Shown here: positions 12,470 through 39,514 of the stretch, in pieces | How the letters are laid out: each line of letters opens with the position of its first letter | How positions within the stretch are numbered: position 1 is the stretch's first letter | NCBI GenBank assembly: GCA_965218695.1 | Contig: OZ244651.1 | Span: forward strand, 224,001 to 288,000 | Length of the DNA stretch: 64,000 bases | Direction: 5' to 3' | Source: Nitrosopumilus sp. | GTDB taxonomy: Archaea; Thermoproteota; Nitrososphaeria; Nitrososphaerales; Nitrosopumilaceae | The notes under the pieces: model-generated | What the model saw: the letters and a program-made list of their open reading frames with translations, nothing else | Database searches by the model: none | Told to the model about the DNA's origin: nothing | Position numbers and translations under genes: made by a program

Positions 12470-13624
12470 GGGGGGGGGGTTGTCGCATAAATCAGTCAAG
12501 CCATAACCTGCCTTGCTTTTAGGTTCCGTCTGGCATGTACTAGGAATTCATCGCGGCTTTTTTGGCGTCATGCGTAGGCTACCCTGACTCCCAGGTTCGT
12601 GGTATGCTCCAGCCTGTTGAGGACCTCGATGTTCCAGCCTATCGCCTTTAGCAGCCCGAACCTTCTCTGGTTAACGTCCTTGCGGAACCTGCAGTACAGC
12701 TGGTGGTGTTCTGTCTCCTCGGCTCCGAATATTCCCTCGATCATCCCGCGCTGCTTGTAGAGGATGGCATCGAACAGTTTGGCTGCCTTTTTCCGATGTT
12801 TTTTGCCCCTGCTCTTTGCGTTCTTTCTCTGCTTGATGTTGGGAACCATGCCAAGCGCAAAGACGGCCTCGCAGTTGCTGTCAGAGTCGTATCCCTTGTC
12901 GGCGTTGAACCTCCACCCGGCAAAGATTCCCTTCATTCCAGCAATGCGGTTCAGCATCGTCTTGAGCACGGCAGTGTCCGTCGTGCGGTTGGACGTGATC
13001 CTGCAGGACAGTATGATCTGCAGTCCGACTGCCGCCGTCACGTGCCACTTGACGTACCGTTTCACCCTTTTTGGGACGAATTCGTGCCTGATTTTGTCCG
13101 GCCAGTCGGCGGTTTCGTACCTGTCCGTCTCCACTCCGGTGCTGTCTGCGGCCAGTATCCCTTCTATCGTGTCGGCTGCATCCATGCATTGGCGCGCAGT
13201 CTCCCTCAGGATTCGCTCCAGCCACCGGATTGGAATCGTCTCCAAGAATCGCGCGATCGTTGAATGGTCCGGAACCGGCTCGTGCCACGGAAGGTACCAC
13301 CCGGGCACGCAGTTTTGCGCGTCCCTGGACGTGAGACCCTCGAAGATCATGATGGCGCATATGCAGGCCATCTTCTCTGCCGAGTGTATTCTGGGTCTTC
13401 CGCGTTTACAGTTGCCTTGTTTTGCCGGCAGTGGGTTCCTCCGGACCAAAGACACGATAGTTTTTATCCGAAAGTCACGCTCTGTAGTATGTGCCCTGTG
13501 ATAACTATTCCAGTAGTTAGTCCTTCTCTTGTGATTCATTGAAGGAGGGCACACTTTATGATCCTTACCGGTATGAGTCAATGGTACGCGATCATACGCT
13601 CAACGTGATTTATGCGACAACCCC
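12470..13624 (-). mobile_element. IS5-like DDE element, transposase 12568..13581
   Basis: TIR ggggttgtcgcataaatca on both sides; TSD cgatgcagg at 12461-12469 and 13625-13633; ADSTG, ADKGYD, RGMIEGIFG motifs. Confidence 0.9.
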
Positions 13625-14116: not shown

Positions 14117-14980
14117 TCAAGGATTTGTTGGGATTGCGATGAATGGCGTTCCGCCTTCGCCCACGACGAGCGGCAGTTTGCCGTCCCATGCTTGCGTCTT
14201 CAACCATTCAAGGTAGTTCGGGTTCGCGGCCAGCGCGTCGTTGATGATGGATATGGCTTCTGCCTCTCCCTTGGCCTCTGCGATGTTCGCGTTTGCGAGT
14301 CCTATGGAGTTTGCCTCCCTCTGTTTTGCCTCGACTTCTATCCTGAGCAGGTCGTTTTCAGCCTTTAGTGCCTTTTGCTCCGCTTCCACCTTTGACTCGA
14401 TTGCCTGCGAGAATAATGATGAAAACTCAAAGTCGGTGATCGATATTACCTCTGTTACTATTCCAAACTGGTTCAGCCTCTCTCGGATGGATACTTCTAT
14501 ATCGGATTTGACCAGTGGACGTTTCGTAATCAGCTCTTCTGCGTTGTAGGTTGCCGTTACCTGCTTGACCGTCTCTTCTATTGCGGGCTGGATAACCCTG
14601 TTTTCATAGTCCAGTCCCAGATTCTGGTACAGGGTGTGTATTGCCTCCTTGTCCGGGTGGTAGTTTACAGTTACAGTAGTCTCTACTGTCTGCAGGTCCT
14701 TTGATGAGCCTCTGGTGTTCTTTTCATACTTTAACGTACGAACCTCGATGTTGATTACCTCGTCCTGAAATGGCACCACAAAATGCAGCCCCTCACCCAG
14801 CGGAGGCTTTGTCAAATCCACTGCGTTCCAATGTAAAAGGACGCCCCTGTGCCCTGCCTCTACAATCTTTACTGATGCAAATATTGCAAGGCCAACTACT
14901 ATGAGTGCTATGATGGCTATTGCAACTCCTTTTGCCGCATTCGCGTTTACGTTGGTTCCTGGTGATCTGTATCTTGACAA
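14117..14980 (-). CDS. SPFH/prohibitin (band 7) family protein
   Basis: TM anchor, GEGLHFVVP, SKDLQ, EELITKR, AIE.KV.AEQ coiled coil. Confidence 0.93.
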   Translation of the reverse strand: MSRYRSPGTNVNANAAKGVAIAIIALIVVGLAIFASVKIVEAGHRGVLLHWNAVDLTKPPLGEGLHFVVPFQDEVINIEVRTLKYEKNTRGSSKDLQTVETTVTVNYHPDKEAIHTLYQNLGLDYENRVIQPAIEETVKQVTATYNAEELITKRPLVKSDIEVSIRERLNQFGIVTEVISITDFEFSSLFSQAIESKVEAEQKALKAENDLLRIEVEAKQREANSIGLANANIAEAKGEAEAISIINDALAANPNYLEWLKTQAWDGKLPLVVGEGGTPFIAIPTNP

Positions 14981-15062
14981 TTGTACATGTATGATGCATC
15001 CTTCTATTATATTATCCTTGGTAATAGCCTGTTGAATACATGATAACCCTGCCCACCCACCA

Positions 15063-15190
15063 TGTGTGACGGGCTGACCCCTGATTATGCATGGTCGTCA
15101 AGGCCTTCTTGTTGAATGGGGCTATCCGAGCTGCTGGGTTACTGGACTTCGAGTCCTGATAGATGCATGCAGCTTCCAGCCTGTCACACA
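15063..15190 (+). ncRNA. Predicted bridge (seek) RNA of IS110 copy 1
   Basis: 14-bp basal stem tgtgtgacgggctg / cagcctgtcacaca enclosing two stem/internal-loop/hairpin domains whose loops match target and donor sequences. Confidence 0.82.
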
Positions 15191-15200
15191 CGGAAAGGAG

Positions 15201-16277
15201 GTGAGAGAAATAGAAAAGAGTATTGGAATCGACATAGGAAAAAGGAAATGCGTGGCATGCGTGATGGAACACGACGGGGTGATCCTCGAAGAGTCATCGT
15301 ATGACAACACGGCCAAGGACGCGCTAGAGTTTGCCACGTCCGCAAAGGCCAGGTACGGCACATGCAGGGCAGTCTGCGAGTCCACCGGGAACCACTGGAT
15401 AAAGACTATCGATGCCTTTGAACACGTGGGAATCCCCATCGCCCTTGCAAACCCGTTCAAGATCAAGGCAATCGCGTCTGCCAGCATAAAAAACGACACC
15501 ATCGACGCAAGAACGCTTGCCCACCTGTTAAGATCCAACCTGATTCCCGCCTGCCATATTGGTTCGGCCGAATCTAGGGGGATAAAACAGATCCTCAGGT
15601 ACCAGATCCGCCTGGTGCAGGACAGGACGAGGGCGATAAATTTCGTGCACACGCTGACTGACAAGTATGACGTAAACCCGAAAGACGGCGGGAAAAACGT
15701 CTGGACCAAAAGGGTCCTGGCGTACCTTGAAGAAGCGGACGTGGAGAGTCCCCATGACAGGTTCGTCCTGGACCGCTGCATAGCCAAGATACGGCACTAC
15801 AATGACGAGATAAAAAAGACCGGGAACGAGATCAGGCGCTACGTCCGTGACGCCCACGGCCCAAAGATACTGATGAGCATTACCGGAATGGATGCGTTTT
15901 CTGCGGCGCTCCTGGCAGCAGAGATTGACACCATCGACAGGTTCGGGAACCCAAAAAAGTTCGTGTCCTGGGCGGGCATGTGCCCGACGCTCCACCAGTC
16001 AGGCGACACGTCATACCACGGCAGGATGAAAAAGGACTCGAACCGGAAGGTCAACTGGGTCATGGTCCAGTGCGCGCTGGTGGCAGTGAGACACGACCCG
16101 AGGATGAAGGAATACTACGTGCGCCTCATGAAGAGGCACAGGCACAACATCGCCATAACGCACGTCGCAAACAAGATGCTGACGATCATCTGGCACATGT
16201 TGACAGAAGACAACCTGTACGAGGACAGAAACGAAAAGCTGTACCGCGCCAAGATCAGACAAGTCATGAGGGCGTAA
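15201..16277 (+). CDS. IS110 DEDD recombinase
   Basis: GIDIGK, CESTG, KNDTIDA..LA (DEDD RuvC-like), GM.P..HQSG serine motif; start uncertain (GTG at 15201). Confidence 0.95.
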   Translation: MREIEKSIGIDIGKRKCVACVMEHDGVILEESSYDNTAKDALEFATSAKARYGTCRAVCESTGNHWIKTIDAFEHVGIPIALANPFKIKAIASASIKNDTIDARTLAHLLRSNLIPACHIGSAESRGIKQILRYQIRLVQDRTRAINFVHTLTDKYDVNPKDGGKNVWTKRVLAYLEEADVESPHDRFVLDRCIAKIRHYNDEIKKTGNEIRRYVRDAHGPKILMSITGMDAFSAALLAAEIDTIDRFGNPKKFVSWAGMCPTLHQSGDTSYHGRMKKDSNRKVNWVMVQCALVAVRHDPRMKEYYVRLMKRHRHNIAITHVANKMLTIIWHMLTEDNLYEDRNEKLYRAKIRQVMRA

Positions 16278-16635
16278 TCCGGGAACCGGTGATGATAGGC
16301 GGTACCGGATCTAGCGGATGCTGTGCACGAATTATGGGAATAATGAAACATGCTTGCATGAATGCTGGGGGACGCCCCCCAGACCCCCCGGAAGGGATTA
16401 TGCATGTCACTCCGCGGGGCAACAAGCCACGTTTTCTGCGGATCTGGCAGGATTCTGCATGCAGGTAATGCTTAAGAAGACAAAAAACACACCCAAAATG
16501 ACAAGCTGGACGCAAAACCTGGATAAGTCCGGGGATGGGTTACATAGATGCATAATTACGCCTAGCTGCAGTGAGTGATGTTGACTGTGTTCTAGACCGA
16601 AAAAGCTAAAGATCAGTGGATCCTAGAGTGTCGGA

Positions 16636-17610
16636 TTGAAGACGGACAACGAAAAATACATCAGGCGCGGCCAGGCATTAATTATTCGCGATGACCCGGA
16701 GAGATGCATCGAGGTCAAAAAGGCCAACCGTCACAAGGTCGGGGCTCCTTTCCAGTATGCAGACTCGTTCTTTGCCTCCCTGGCGGCAGTAAAATCGATG
16801 ATCCACATCCCCTACAGGAACCTGATGGGCATGGTCGTGGAGGTGCTCAGGGAGGAGCAAGTGCCCCACTATACCACCATCTTCAGAAGGATCCAGTCGC
16901 TGGATGTCCAGAGGAATGGCAGAATCATCACGGTCACCGGCAGCAAGGGCGCTGCAATCAGGCTTGCAGTGGATTCTACCGGCCTCAAGCAGCACAACAG
17001 GGGGGAGTGGATACGGCAAAAGTGGAAGGTAAGACGCGGATTTGTAAAGATGCACATTCTGGTTGACGTGGATACAAAAAAGATACTGGCAGTCCGTGTC
17101 ACCGATGATCGGACAGGGGATTCTCCCATGTTCGTTCCGCTGCTTGATGACGCTCTGGAGAACTGCGTGGGTCCGACATCAGAGTCCCGTCATGCTGGCA
17201 GTCCCGCAAAATGTTCTGCGTATGGCGATGGCGCTTACGCCTCTCGGGACAACCTAAAGGCATGCAGGGAGCGCAACGTGACCCCGCTCATCAAACTCAA
17301 GGTAAGCTCCACCCCGAAAGGAAAGGGCGCAGGCGACGTGTGGGGCATGGCAGTCCGGGACCAGTTTGGCGGCTCTGATCCCAATCGGGTGAAATGGCTG
17401 CCCGATGATGAAAAGAAAAGTAATCAGGAGGCGTGGAAGACTCGAGTCGGATACGGCAAAAGGTGGATTGTGGAGATTGTGTTTTCTGCATTCAAGAGAA
17501 TGTTCGGGGAACACCTGTACTCATTGAAATGGAAGAACATGATCCAGGAGGTCAATCTCAAGGTGGCCACCTACAACAAGCTGATAGACATGGGAGCAGG
17601 GGCAATGTAG
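16636..17610 (+). CDS. IS5-family DDE transposase, intact ORF
   Basis: VDSTGLK, KMH..VD, GDGAY, RWIVE.VFS motifs; TTG start. Confidence 0.92.
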   Translation: MKTDNEKYIRRGQALIIRDDPERCIEVKKANRHKVGAPFQYADSFFASLAAVKSMIHIPYRNLMGMVVEVLREEQVPHYTTIFRRIQSLDVQRNGRIITVTGSKGAAIRLAVDSTGLKQHNRGEWIRQKWKVRRGFVKMHILVDVDTKKILAVRVTDDRTGDSPMFVPLLDDALENCVGPTSESRHAGSPAKCSAYGDGAYASRDNLKACRERNVTPLIKLKVSSTPKGKGAGDVWGMAVRDQFGGSDPNRVKWLPDDEKKSNQEAWKTRVGYGKRWIVEIVFSAFKRMFGEHLYSLKWKNMIQEVNLKVATYNKLIDMGAGAM

Positions 17611-17941
17611 AGTCGGATAGGCGAATCCGGTACAAGTCTTGGGTGACTGAGTTGAATTATGCATCTATGTAACCCATCCCCGGACTTATCCAGGTTTTGC
17701 GTCCAGCTTGTCATTTTGGGTGTGTTTTTTGTCTTCTTAAGCGTTACCTGCATGCAGAATCCTGCCAGATCCGCAGAAAACGTGGCTTGTTGCCCCGCGG
17801 AGTGACATGCATAATCCCTTCCGGGGGGTCTGGGGGGCTGGCCCCCCAGCATTCATGTAGAAACATCCCACAATTCCCATAATTCGTGCACAGCATCCGC
17901 TAGGGCCGGCACTGCATTTACTGACACCACCGGTTCCGCGT

Positions 17942-19021
17942 CTACGCCTCCTTCATGACTTGTCTGATCTTGGCGCGGTACAGCTTTTCGTTTCTGTCCT
18001 CGTACAGGTTGTCTTCTGTCAACATGTGCCAGATGATCGTCAGCATCTTGTTTGCGACGTGCGTTATGGCGATGTTGTGCCTGTGCCTCTTCATGAGGCG
18101 CACGTAGTATTCCTTCATCCTCGGGTCGTGTCTCACTGCCACCAGCGCGCACTGGACCATGACCCAGTTGACCTTCCGGTTCGAGTCCTTTTTCATCCTG
18201 CCGTGGTATGACGTGTCGCCTGACTGGTGGAGCGTCGGGCACATGCCCGCCCAGGACACGAACTTTTTTGGGTTCCCGAACCTGTCGATGGTGTCAATCT
18301 CTGCTGCCAGGAGCGCCGCAGAAAACGCATCCATTCCGGTAATGCTCATCAGTATCTTTGGGCCGTGGGCGTCACGGACGTAGCGCCTGATCTCGTTCCC
18401 GGTCTTTTTTATCTCGTCATTGTAGTGCCGTATCTTGGCTATGCAGCGGTCCAGGACGAACCTGTCATGGGGACTCTCCACGTCCGCTTCTTCAAGGTAC
18501 GCCAGGACCCTTTTGGTCCAGACGTTTTTCCCGCCGTCTTTCGGGTTTACGTCATACTTGTCAGTCAGCGTGTGCACGAAATTTATCGCCCTCGTCCTGT
18601 CCTGCACCAGGCGGATCTGGTACCTGAGGATCTGTTTTATCCCCCTAGATTCGGCCGAACCAATATGGCAGGCGGGAATCAGGTTGGATCTTAACAGGTG
18701 GGCAAGCGTTCTTGCGTCGATGGTGTCGTTTTTTATGCTGGCAGACGCGATTGCCTTGATCTTGAACGGGTTTGCAAGGGCGATGGGGATTCCCACGTGT
18801 TCAAAGGCATCGATAGTCTTTATCCAGTGGTTCCCGGTGGACTCGCAGACTGCCCTGCATGTGCCGTACCTGGCCTTTGCGGACGTGGCAAACTCTAGCG
18901 CGTCCTTGGCCGTGTTGTCATACGATGACTCTTCGAGGATCACCCCGTCGTGTTCCATCACGCATGCCACGCATTTCCTTTTTCCTATGTCGATTCCAAT
19001 ACTCTTTTCTATTTCTCTCAC
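17942..19021 (-). CDS. IS110 DEDD recombinase, copy 2
   Basis: Protein identical to copy 1 except the last residues (MKEA vs MRA). Confidence 0.95.
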   Translation of the reverse strand: MREIEKSIGIDIGKRKCVACVMEHDGVILEESSYDNTAKDALEFATSAKARYGTCRAVCESTGNHWIKTIDAFEHVGIPIALANPFKIKAIASASIKNDTIDARTLAHLLRSNLIPACHIGSAESRGIKQILRYQIRLVQDRTRAINFVHTLTDKYDVNPKDGGKNVWTKRVLAYLEEADVESPHDRFVLDRCIAKIRHYNDEIKKTGNEIRRYVRDAHGPKILMSITGMDAFSAALLAAEIDTIDRFGNPKKFVSWAGMCPTLHQSGDTSYHGRMKKDSNRKVNWVMVQCALVAVRHDPRMKEYYVRLMKRHRHNIAITHVANKMLTIIWHMLTEDNLYEDRNEKLYRAKIRQVMKEA

Positions 19022-19031
19022 CTCCTTTCCG

Positions 19032-19159
19032 TGTGTGACAGGCTGGAAGCTGCATGCATCTATCAGGACTCGAAGTCCAGTAACCCAGCAGCTCGGATAG
19101 CCCCATTCAACAAGAAGGCCTTGACGACCATGCATAATCAGGGGTCAGCCCGTCACACA
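19032..19159 (-). ncRNA. Predicted bridge RNA of IS110 copy 2
   Basis: Reverse complement of 15063-15190. Confidence 0.82.
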
Positions 19160-19215
19160 TGGTGGGTGGGCAGGGTTATCATGTATTCAACAGGCTACTT
19201 GGTAACGGACGTGCA

Positions 19216-20029: not shown

Positions 20030-20144
20030 TGCCGGGGGCGGGTTTCGAACCCGCGACCTCCAGATTATGAGTATTGCCTTAGTTGGAGAAACCCTGGAGT
20101 TTGCCAATCAAGCTGGCACTCTAACCAGGCTGAGCTACCCCGGC
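20030..20144 (-). tRNA. tRNA-Met(CAT), elongator type, with 40-nt intron at 30/31 (20073-20112)
   Basis: Spliced product gives CCAGA-CTCATAA-TCTGG anticodon arm; exact bulge-helix-bulge at the junctions. Confidence 0.92.
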
Positions 20145-28087: not shown

Positions 28088-29300
28088 GGGTGTGTCCTAG
28101 TAATAAAAAATGCCATTTCATGTGCCAGGATGCCAAAGACATGATTGGTGCCAGAACCCGTCGACACCAACAGTGCCGCACCATTAATCCCCCACAACCC
28201 ATAAAATCCCCCAAATCCAAGACACTGTGCGGAGGCTCCGCTAGGAGGCGCGTGTCAAGACGCGCCGGTTACGCTGCAAGTGTTGCGATTTGATCCTGTG
28301 TGAGCCTGCCGTCTTTTGCCTGCAATCTGGCCACGAGCTCGACGTTGTAGCACATGACACGGATCGCAGTCTCCCTTCTCCGGTTCTCGTGTTTTCGGCA
28401 CCTGGTGCTGTCCCCGTACATCTTCTTGAGGGCTGCAAAGACTGCCTCGATGATGCTGCGCTGGTGGTACTGCGAGTCAAACCTGTCCTTGTCATCCATG
28501 TACAGGCTTACCATTTCGCGCCACGACTGACTTCCCCTGGCGTTGCGTATGGTGTTGGATTTTGGCTTGATGCGGGGCACCATTCCCATCGCAGATATCA
28601 TGTTGCACATGAGCCTTGCCAGGTATGCAGAATCCAGGCAAAAGTCACCGGTGCCTAGGCCGAGCCTGCCGAGCATCGCGTACAGCCCGTTTATGTCTGC
28701 CACCGCGCTGTCAGTTGCCATGCAGTCGATTATCACCCTGGTGCGTATGTCCACGATTGCGTGCAGCTTGACCCATCCCTTTCTGGTACGAAAACTGTCG
28801 GTCCTGACGTTAAACCACCTGACAAACCGCAGGTACGAGTACCCGGTACTGTCTGCTGCCAAGGAGCCTGTCCCCACCTCCCTGATGGCAATCCGGTGTG
28901 TCTCTGCCAGATACCATTCCGGGATCAGGCCGTAGGCGCGTGCTATCGTGCTCTTGGAGGGAATTCTGTCCAGGCCCATCCTGGCTGCCATGACGCTGTT
29001 ACTTCGGAGAATGCCGACCATCTTGCGGTAGGTCGTGCGCTGTGCCTCAAGCATGATGCAGACAGCTGCCATGGCGCCAGGCGGGTATGCCGTCATGCCG
29101 CCCAAGCCGGGCCAGACGGCGTACGGATCCCCAAGCTCTTTGATTATCCCCAGCACGGTATTCAGCATGAGGCCCGGCATGTACTGCTGAACCAGATCGT
29201 ACTGTCGTTGGTCGCGTTTCTTTGTAGTCATTAGGCGATGCCGTGATCTGCCGATCCATATCTTTTGTCATCCTAGAGTATATCTCTCTAGGACACACCC
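28088..29300 (-). mobile_element. IS5-like element, transposase 28269..29231
   Basis: TIR gggtgtgtcctag; 9-bp TSD ctatatctg at 28079-28087 and 29301-29309; ADSTG, LDSAY, YHQRSIIE motifs. Confidence 0.92.
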
Positions 29301-29338
29301 CTATATCTGCCATCATTTATTAGACAAGAGCAGATTCC

Positions 29339-38082: not shown

Positions 38083-39514
38083 TGTGGGATCCCGAAAGTA
38101 GTTCGCCCCCCTCCAAGACTTGGAGGTACTTCCATGTTTGATGTTGCCGGCTGTTGCATAATTGTCTTGTGTTGGATCCTGCGTCCGGAATCATGAATTT
38201 TTGTCATTTCCACTCCACGCATGGCGACTTTCAAAAAATTGTGCGCAACATCCCCCAGGATGGGGCGCGGTTGTGACGTCGTGCCGGACAGCTATTCTGC
38301 GCGGTATTCCTCACCGGTCTGGCCGTCCACTACCATCTCTCCTGCAGGGGGCATCTTTCTTTCGAATGCCTGCGCCGGGGTCTCGAGGTTGTCCCAGTCA
38401 AGGGACATGTGCGGCCGGTCGTGGTTGTACCACTCCATGAACCGCTCCACGGGATCCTTTGCTGGCGCGGTGCAAAACGGCCCTCCAACGTGGGAATCCC
38501 CTGAGGCGCCGCGCCTGGTCTTGGCAGAAGATGCCGCCTCGAACCGGCGCAGCTTGCGCTGCATCTCCCCGTGCAGGCGCTCCAGCTTGCCGTTGGTTTG
38601 GGGGTGCCGCACGCGCGCCAGTATGTGCCTGATTCCAAGCTCGACTAGCCTCTGCTCGAACCTGGAGGCTCCCTTCTTCTTGACCTCGGATTCCGTGGCA
38701 TAGAACTGGGCGCCGCGGTCAGTCAGGATCGATGCGGGCTTGCCGTAATTTTTTATGGCCTCGTCGAGCACCTTCAGGGCGTTTTCGGTTGTCGCCTCCT
38801 CAAATACCCCAAATCCGGTCACGAAGCGCGAGGCGTCGTCTTCATAGCACAGGAACCACCTGCCGTCGTCAAGCTGTTTGTAGTCTGTGTGCCACATCGA
38901 GTTGGAGTGCTCGCGCTCGTAGCGGATCCACTTGCGGCGCTGGCTCTTCCTTGGCTGGGTGTCTGCAAAATCGGCATCCTTCAATATCCTGTGCAGGACG
39001 TTGTGTGGGATATGTATTCCTGTAAGCGACTTTATGATGCGCTCCAGGGACGCTGCCCCGTGGACTGCAGTGGACGCAGCCGATAAAACCGCCGAATGAT
39101 CCCGCCTCCCGGGCGCGCACTTTTTGGGCCTGCCCATGGGAGCAGGATACGCGATCCGATCCTTGTCCCTGTACCTCTTCCACAGCTTTTGGACCCAGCG
39201 GACCGACACTCCCATGCTTGCTGCAATCTCTTTGTTGCGGGAATTCTTGCGCTTTTCTTGTATGATCCATTCGACTTTGGACTGGTCAAGCTTTTTCATC
39301 ACTCGCACTCTCCGTCTTCCTATATGACGCCACACGGCCGAGCGTCTCCACCGACGGGAAACCCACACACCGTCGTTTCTGGTAAGGGACAGGCTGACTG
39401 CATTTCCCAGTAATCTTGCACGCGATGCCATGCCGCGGATAATGTCCTTCATTGGGCATGTCCACCCCGGGCCGGAGCCTCATGTGGGGGGTGAACAACT
39501 TTCGGGACTATACA
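38083..39514 (-). mobile_element. IS481-family element, transposase ~38292..39299
   Basis: TGT...ACA ends, ~29-bp imperfect TIR, 15-bp TSD gctcccgaatatgtc; WHTD, DD.SR, TDRG, PQTNGKLER motifs. Confidence 0.92.

Follow-up and report, generated by a model that had tools for sequence, protein, structure and literature searches.

Elements of the IS110 family were reported to target the repeats of other mobile elements in bacteria before guide RNAs were known. The inverted repeats of the insertion sequence (IS) IS1384 are reportedly the specific integration target of IS1383, presumably a member of the IS110 family, in Pseudomonas putida strain H (so the title of a 2001 report by Mueller, Lauf and Herrmann), and IS4321 and IS5075 are said, in the title of a 2003 report by Partridge and Hall, to use terminal inverted repeats belonging to Tn21-family transposons as their target and to have subterminal inverted repeats. 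The targets of IS4321 and IS5075 are the 38-bp repeats of Tn3-family transposons in bacteria. Here we analyze a 64,000-nt stretch of contig OZ244651.1 of Nitrosopumilus sp. (the window, in whose coordinates positions are given), in which two inverted copies of an IS110-family element occupy the two end-repeats of one IS5-family insertion sequence. We consider it highly probable from the sequence that an RNA-guided IS110-family element with IS1111-like features split both end-repeats of an earlier IS5 insertion. Compared by title only, the IS1383/IS1384 pair likewise involves the inverted repeats of another element as target; it is bacterial and plasmid-borne, whereas the present case comes from an archaeon, its guide RNA can be read from the sequence, a genome-wide site census accompanies it, and the association recurs in a second family of the order. 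IS4321 and IS5075, of the IS1111 group and also compared by title, share with this locus the subterminal inverted repeats and the targeting of transposon ends. An earlier note on this DNA (the original prediction) overstated the novelty of the case, given these bacterial precedents; no archaeal case of transposon-repeat targeting was found in a literature search of incomplete coverage, where ISfinder-type notes or supplements may hold such cases.

As far as the available text of the three reports on RNA guidance goes, bridge RNAs and seekRNAs read both DNA strands around a 2-nt core and include handshake-like bases (Durrant 2024; Hiraizumi 2024; Siddiquee 2024). In IS1111-type elements, the accessible part of the seekRNA paper places the long non-coding region usually downstream of the gene, with exceptions in ISMtsp17, which has an upstream non-coding region, and in the diverged ISHvo10 and ISAcp5, which have long regions on both sides (Siddiquee 2024). 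The guide loops of the locus described here lie upstream, in contrast to the usual downstream non-coding region of IS1111-type elements such as IS4321 and IS5075. Guide, target, donor and covariation can all be read from this archaeal locus and its genome.

Anatomy of the double insertion

Two inverted IS110-family elements had been placed at 15035-16548 (plus strand) and 17664-19187 (minus strand), each at a TG, and these boundaries were confirmed base for base. The left junction reads cttggtaa, tagcctgtTG, AATACATG...ACATAGA (15035-16548), TGcataatt, and the right junction is its exact mirror: aattatgCA, TCTATGT...CATGTATT (17664-19187, minus strand), CAacaggcta, cttggtaa. Deletion of each IS110 copy together with one TG restores tagcctgtTGcataatt at both ends (17 of 17 positions), as claimed, and the target duplication cttggtaa noted earlier stands directly outside the restored repeats (15017-24 and 19198-205, 8 of 8 positions). 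The base of entry and the relative orientation are identical in both repeats, the IS110 left end facing outward, and the IS110 copies are bounded by the TG core and have no target duplication of their own. The restored IS5-family element is 1131 bp long with 17-bp terminal repeats, and its transposase gene is intact, with a length equal to that in uninterrupted copies. Since removal of the IS110 copies restores both the 17/17 repeat and the 8/8 direct repeat, the inner IS5 element inserted first and was entered twice later. The features of the locus are as follows.

15017-15024, no strand: left 8-bp IS5 target duplication cttggtaa, identical to 19198-19205
15025-15034, plus: tagcctgtTG, outer 10 bp of the left IS5 repeat with the TG core, target of the left IS110 copy
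15035-16548, plus: IS110-family copy A1, 1514 bp, termini AATACATG...ACATAGA (from sequence and repeats)
15062-15192, plus: predicted bridge/seek RNA of A1 (from alignments, consensus fold and model R1)
15201-16277, plus: A1 recombinase gene, GTG start, 358 aa, DEDD_Tnp_IS110 and Transposase_20
16278-16548, plus: A1 downstream non-coding region, 271 nt, with an A1-unique patch at 16273-16366
16549-17663, plus: IS5-family body between the insertions, starting TGcataatt and ending aattatgCA (inner repeat parts)
16636-17610, plus: IS5-family transposase gene, 324 aa, intact
17664-19187, minus: IS110-family copy A2, 1524 bp, with its gene at 17942-19021 and its RNA at about 19030-19160, both on the minus strand
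19188-19197, minus: outer 10 bp of the right IS5 repeat, CAacaggcta as read on the plus strand
19198-19205, no strand: right 8-bp IS5 target duplication cttggtaa (from sequence)

The recombinase encoded by A1 and A2 contains the DEDD_Tnp_IS110 and Transposase_20 domains (Pfam, E = 1.5e-23 and 9e-25) and reached 232.3 bits against the NCBIfam model NF033542, ‘IS110 family RNA-guided transposase’ (cut-off 140). Its catalytic D, E, D, D residues and C-terminal serine aligned with those of IS621 (8wt6), the motifs GIDIGK, cESTG, KNDTIDAR and HQSGD corresponding to GIDTAK, EATG, KTDTVDAR and YESGS. The inner transposase, with DDE_Tnp_1 and DDE_Tnp_1_5 (Pfam) and a score of 200.3 bits against NF033579 (cut-off 140), belongs to the IS5 family, and the other features of an IS5 host are also present, namely the 17-bp repeat and 8-bp duplications in three copies in this genome. 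A search of related contigs returned a single useful recombinase relative, from a Nitrosopumilus sp. metagenome-assembled genome (66% identity); in a tblastn search against plasmids, the best matches were haloarchaeal ‘IS110 family transposase’ genes at ~34% identity, a name that does not separate the IS110 and IS1111 groups. The host genome comprises 2.63 Mb in 9 contigs (52.8% G+C), and its archaeal nature is indicated by a full-length archaeal small-subunit rRNA match and an archaeal AmoA, which matched none of 14 control genomes.

Inverted 1.5-kb repeats around 1.1 kb are hard to assemble and could in principle be a mis-join of separate IS copies. Contigs assembled from public runs (of 23 such runs, none is recorded as RNA) end 20 nt into the IS110 element on both sides, short of our 31-letter bridging rule, and bridge no junction. 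These same contigs do connect the unique flank on either side with the outer half of the repeat plus those 20 nt, although the runs are possibly the assembly’s own source. The window itself is part of a 2.46-Mb contig with dozens of IS copies, both the 8-bp duplication and the halves of the two repeats fit exactly, and the same architecture occurs in an unrelated assembly (genome G200, see below), which together make an artefact extremely unlikely.

A predicted guide RNA that varies with its target

We aligned the non-coding end upstream of the gene for every copy in the genome, eight of them a second time, and the alignment resolved into a constant scaffold with two short variable blocks. The RNAalifold consensus is a basal stem around two arms, each composed of an outer stem, an internal loop and a hairpin. 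Across 12 sequences from 5 genomes, 90.2% of cells were paired, as compared with 34-54% when partners were slid, and 13 of the 32 pairs showed compensatory change on both sides; none of 500 shuffles reached the observed values. The RNA of A2 was located by a match to the covariance model R1 built from this RNA, at genome positions 243029-243160 (window 19029-19160).

The loops of the A1 RNA match both the insertion site and the element’s own ends. On the 5' side of the target loop, GAUUAUGCA is the complement of TGCATAAT, the right half-site with the core; on the 3' side, CUUGUUG equals the left half-site cctgtTG with one U-G wobble, and the AAU that comes next corresponds to the initial three bases of the element. 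The donor loop has on its 3' side GAUAGAUG, equal to the right end of the element plus TG, and then CAU, the opening bases of the right half-site; its 5' side, UGGGUUAC (in most relatives UGUGUUAC), is able to pair with AATACA at the left end. An RNA with loops matching the target and the joined ends, one of the marks of the IS110 family, was found in silico. Because a guide RNA was found and its loops fit the site, targeting in this element is very probably RNA-guided, as the original prediction had supposed from the family.

If the loops act as guides, they should follow the flanks among relatives, and the copies in this genome include at least five naturally reprogrammed relatives. Subfamily A comprises four copies (at least 94.8% identity), all at c(c/t)gtTG^cataatt at the ends of IS5 copies, which is the flank that had been expected of near-identical copies; its guide AAUUAUGCA corresponds to the flank TGcataatt. 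A left guide CCUGUUG goes with the left flank cctgttg. More distant subfamilies (~80-83% identity) have other flanks, each fitting its own loops. In subfamily B, whose guide is AAUUACGCA and whose flank is TGcgtaatt, one guide base and one target base have changed together relative to A. Subfamily C combines the guide AAAUUCACC with the flank TGgtgaac (8 of 9 after a one-base shift) and the left guide GUUGUUG with gttgtTG. The left guides of D (GUUCGUG) and F (UCUGUUG) correspond to the left flanks gttcgTG and tctgtTG, respectively, and the guide of E, AUCAGAUCA, to the flank TGatctg. The original prediction had named copies in unrelated flanks as evidence against itself; such copies exist among the distant subfamilies, but each of these flanks matches the guides of its own element. 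Over 14 elements, guides paired with their own site at a mean of 10.6 of the 12 non-core positions, versus 7.2 for the sites of other classes.

The same correspondence extends to other genomes of the order. Recombinase relatives were detected by protein search in 22 of 201 genomes, and model R1 matched in 16 of 151 sampled genomes, representing 6 of 20 families; in 10 of the 15 genomes besides this one, one or more matches lie just upstream of an IS110 gene from the protein search. Among the 29 R1 matches, 14 had no usable automatic guide parse, due to regular-expression misses and divergent termini, and were left out of the counts. For elements that had not gone into the model, left guide and left flank agreed at 7 of 7 positions in genomes G038, G078, G053 and G021; a second G041 copy agreed at 6 of 7. 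A TG core dinucleotide flanked every complete copy examined (this genome, G200, G041, G133 and G092).

Site choice might instead be made by the protein or by DNA structure, with the RNA-like matches as leftovers of junction sequences, and donor-loop sequences do necessarily resemble the element’s ends. Such leftovers do not account for target-loop bases that change with the flanks in at least five subfamilies and in other genomes while the stems remain fixed or change in a compensatory manner, and in related elements the RNA is described as essential in the available portions of the same three papers. We therefore regard protein- or DNA-directed choice as very improbable.

The 271-nt downstream region (16278-16548, with its minus-strand counterpart at 17664-17941) includes a G+C-rich palindrome and CTGCATGCAG. 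It is strongly conserved from one subfamily to another and shows no covariation with the target. Within it, GGATTATGCATG and CAACAAG look like copies of the guides; we rejected them as a second guide because they are identical in all subfamilies whatever the target.

Beyond subfamily A, the sites themselves differ in kind. For both B copies the site is GAGGTTGGTGCGTAATTC, the left repeat of another IS5-type element whose right repeat (..GCATAATTC) mismatches the B guide and is unoccupied; both B copies are broken by other insertion sequences. Subfamily C uses an internal site of a gene for a 447-aa DDE_Tnp_4 transposase, present in several copies in the genome. Three of the five subfamilies with readable sites hence use other insertion sequences, C internally, and the lineage is not confined to terminal repeats. 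A fixed position and orientation within the repeat of another transposon was observed for all four A copies, the two B copies, and the insertions in G200, G041 and G078.

Further fragments and nested elements were recorded elsewhere in the genome (G000, with contigs C1 and C2). A 1214-bp IS5-family element with DDE_Tnp_1 and DUF772, represented by more than 25 copies, occupies the palindrome CTGCWTGCAGG downstream of the B1 and C1 genes, at G000:C1:194237-195447 and 2049305-2048095, outside the window, with another copy at about 28088-29302 within it; its presence inside the non-coding regions of B1 and C1 represents a third layer of nesting. The gene of copy B2 (G000:C1:213721-216901) is interrupted by a 1654-bp IS66-family element with ~20 genome copies. 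An IS110 left-end fragment at G000:C2:1538-1725 has the same guides and left flank (cacTTAGTT.) as the G038 element, and could be a shared element or foreign DNA on a small contig. At G000:C1:2266392-2266644, two head-to-head IS110 right-end fragments lie ~25 nt apart, both then followed by TGtggatct.

Occupied and empty sites

To relate guide match to occupancy, we searched the genome for the 14 nt covered by the guides, a census that replaced an earlier one based on 18-mers (at most 2 mismatches), which had missed the 8-copy GCTGTTGCATAATT site. No unoccupied exact 14-nt guide site was detected in the genome. Subfamily A occupies three exact sites and one more (cccgtTG) that keeps a G-U pair, whereas the 15 sites with one mismatch are all empty. 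The latter comprise six IS5-type repeats with G at -4, of which four are the ends of two full-length uninterrupted IS5 copies; eight copies with G at -5, ~70 nt inside a 1432-bp repeat; and one site with a B-type right half. The genome therefore offers a natural specificity experiment in which every exact site is occupied and 15 of 15 one-mismatch sites are empty. The 1432-bp repeat (~38083-39514 in the window, site at 38150) occurs in eight genome copies at least 99.9% identical, each carrying GCTGTTGCATAATT and each empty.

The two full-length uninterrupted IS5 copies are 96-97% identical to the interrupted one, are flanked by 8-bp duplications and end in tagcGtgtTGcataatt. Intact copies had been expected to share the restored ends exactly, and a departure had been named as an outcome that would speak against the prediction; taken to the letter, this is what was found, since these copies end in tagcGtgt rather than tagcCtgt (16 of 17 positions). 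The changed base, at -4, lies inside the left guide duplex and would give a C-C or U-C mismatch, and this mismatch with the left target guide would explain why these copies are unoccupied. The G variant recurs in a relative that is 80% identical to the IS5 element and is thus not recent. Related repeats that lack the TG core had been noted as untouched, and they are indeed uninterrupted: ttgtCGcataa at both ends of an element at ~12475-13618, and ttgtTTcctaatt at ~1045 on the minus strand. The former is an IS5-type element with a 337-aa DDE_Tnp_1 gene (12568-13581, minus strand) and the repeat GGGGGTTGTCGCATAAATCA at either end; CG stands there in place of the TG of the A site, and the element is unoccupied. 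The census fits the strong preference for perfect matches reported for IS621; it would look the same if repeats remained uninterrupted only as variants with a guide mismatch.

The double insertion itself recurs in G200, a genome placed in a different family of the order; its recombinase and the one described here are 47% identical. Two inverted copies, 99.8% alike over 1482 nt, surround a 979-bp body with an IS5-type transposase of the same two Pfam families, at the junctions ccttgtTG^cccaact and gtttgtTG^cataact and with the same element termini, AATACATG...ACATAGA. In G041 and G078, both of the same genus as G200, at least one insertion each was found at tgctgtgtTG. G200 also contains many uninterrupted copies of its IS5 type, with 8-bp duplications checked by eye in at least two.

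These data bear on whether each repeat was entered independently. Alternatively, transposition could have hit only one repeat, the second copy having arisen when the inverted repeats recombined or underwent gene conversion, or when the element re-inserted preferentially nearby. A repeat search showed 100% complementarity between the inverted arms (15025-16272 and 17950-19197) over 1248 nt, and the last 191 nt of A1 and A2 are 98% alike, yet the ~100 nt just past the stop codon (16273-16366 in A1, 17846-17949 in A2) are only 76% alike, and the A1 patch is unique in the genome, its best other match being 84%. A1 and A2 are thus mosaic, with gene conversion as the probable cause, identity over 1248 nt next to a divergent stretch being a mark of that process. 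In G200, moreover, one IS5 copy was entered twice and others with better left repeats not at all, which hints at local re-insertion, although the argument is post hoc. Conversely, the repeats share only 17 bp outside the IS110 element, very short for homologous copying; both junctions are exactly as guided insertion predicts; and a double insertion needs no special mechanism here because every exact site is occupied. We consider such copying unlikely overall and prefer two guided insertions.

Several observations nevertheless weigh against RNA guidance into both repeats as a complete account. No Rfam family matches the RNA: one search yielded only two tRNAs at the gathering score, and another, over 14950-16650, only chance-level snoRNA-like matches. 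One guide mismatch is present in occupied sites of B (position -1) and E (position -2), in those of G133 and G092 and in that of the second copy in G200, and the D and E sites are unique DNA rather than insertion sequences. Some cross-class scores reach 15/16, and the contrast between own and other sites is blunted because several classes target related repeats. In G200, the left repeat of at least five inspected uninterrupted IS5 copies fits the guides better than do the two occupied sites, so a good guide match is not sufficient for insertion. As gene conversion acted on A1 and A2, both insertions need not share one recent source. Finally, neither joints nor a circle junction nor a restored tagcctgtTGcataatt turned up in the contigs of four public runs (X1, X2, X3 and X5), a form of data from which rare forms are dropped.

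A separate question concerns what the IS5 element represents to its occupant, which touches only the ‘hyperparasite’ part of the original prediction. Targeting could be RNA-guided with the IS5 repeat simply a safe haven, that is, a multi-copy harmless landing site, so that the disabling of IS5 would be a by-product and no antagonistic co-evolution would be involved. This would be in line with the use of another IS5-type left repeat by B, of a DDE_Tnp_4 gene interior by C and of unique DNA by D and E, with the many matching repeats in G200, most of which are unoccupied, and with bacterial relatives, described in the available parts of the published accounts as targeting REP and attC repeats. 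Against it, the uninterrupted IS5 ends in this genome all mismatch the guide (six of six with G at -4), as selection by the IS110 element would leave them, and in two families of the order the insertions fall at an identical position in a repeat of this kind. We judge a harmless landing site to be a strong contender, only slightly short of an even chance.

As for the immediate surroundings, the composite is situated 37 nt upstream of the point at which an SPFH/Band 7 gene (14117-14980, minus strand) starts, and a 115-nt tRNA match, probably intron-containing, is located ~0.8 kb away (20030-20144, minus strand).

Proposed mechanism and comparison with known systems

In the mechanism that we propose, an IS5-family element would have inserted first, generating the 8-bp duplication, and the IS110-family element would later have entered each IS5 repeat at the TG at positions 9-10. 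A structured RNA of ~130 nt with two internal loops would be made from the upstream non-coding end and used for targeting. The AAU after the left target guide, which matches the first bases of the element, would be a handshake-like guide; in the donor loop, the 3' strand GAUAGAUG would read the right end plus TG while the 5' strand would pair with the left end. The DEDD/serine recombinase would then recombine a circle (right end-TG-left end) with the site, leaving TG on both sides. Since the two IS5 repeats represent a single site in opposite orientations, one guide fits both, and the IS110 copies end up inverted. A split 10 bp from the tip of the repeat would disable the IS5 ends, and precise excision would restore them; such reversibility would follow by analogy from IS621, for which the accessible text reports that the same complex performs excision, less efficiently than insertion. 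If a split repeat does disable IS5, this would amount to a built-in, sequence-specific and possibly reversible control of IS expansion in IS-rich archaeal genomes.

A more far-reaching reading would see here a long-lived parasite-on-parasite pair of ammonia-oxidizing archaea, in which one bridge-RNA lineage has tracked the TG at positions 9-10 in the terminal repeat of a single IS5 lineage through at least two families of the order, with recombinases only 47% identical. Single-base repeat variants would then be escape alleles and guide reprogramming the counter-move, the guided element would act as a natural brake on IS5 expansion, and the RNA layout, with its upstream position, IS1111 strand order, long subterminal repeats and second conserved non-coding region, would be intermediate between the IS110 and IS1111 designs. 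We offer this picture tentatively and consider it rather doubtful as a whole.

As for the layout itself, the element resembles IS621, in the available descriptions of that system, in that the RNA lies upstream in the left end, has target and donor internal loops, pairs with both strands around a 2-nt core and places handshake-like bases after one guide, and in that the DEDD residues and the serine are kept. It differs from IS621, within the same descriptions, in that the 5' side pairs with the top strand and the order is reversed. The core is TG here and CT in IS621, a common basal stem closes both arms here, and the proteins are distant (PDB match, E = 2e-12). In these respects the element is closer to IS1111-type seekRNAs such as those of ISEc11, ISKpn4 and ISPa11, for which the accessible part of the paper describes a top-strand complement 5' of a bottom-strand match (Siddiquee 2024). 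Subterminal inverted repeats and natural reprogramming among relatives are likewise shared with IS1111-type elements as described there. In A1, the subterminal repeat ATG(A)TAACCC..CCC is imperfect, with 13 matches in 16 columns, within the 7-17 bp by which IS1111 elements are recognized; in G200 it comprises 12 perfect bp and continues imperfectly to ~40. Unlike in IS1111-type elements, where the available text places the RNA downstream of the gene, the RNA lies upstream here, and the 271-nt downstream region is constant whatever the target. In its description, this arrangement resembles the exceptions ISMtsp17, ISHvo10 and ISAcp5.

Read from the sequence, the layout mixes IS1111 strand order and subterminal repeats with the upstream position of IS110-type elements, and so bears on how the RNA moved between element ends. 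Such compact pairs of recombinase and RNA may also interest collectors of programmable recombinases. Taken together, the principle is not new: this locus is an archaeal example of a known bacterial behavior, with an unusual RNA layout.

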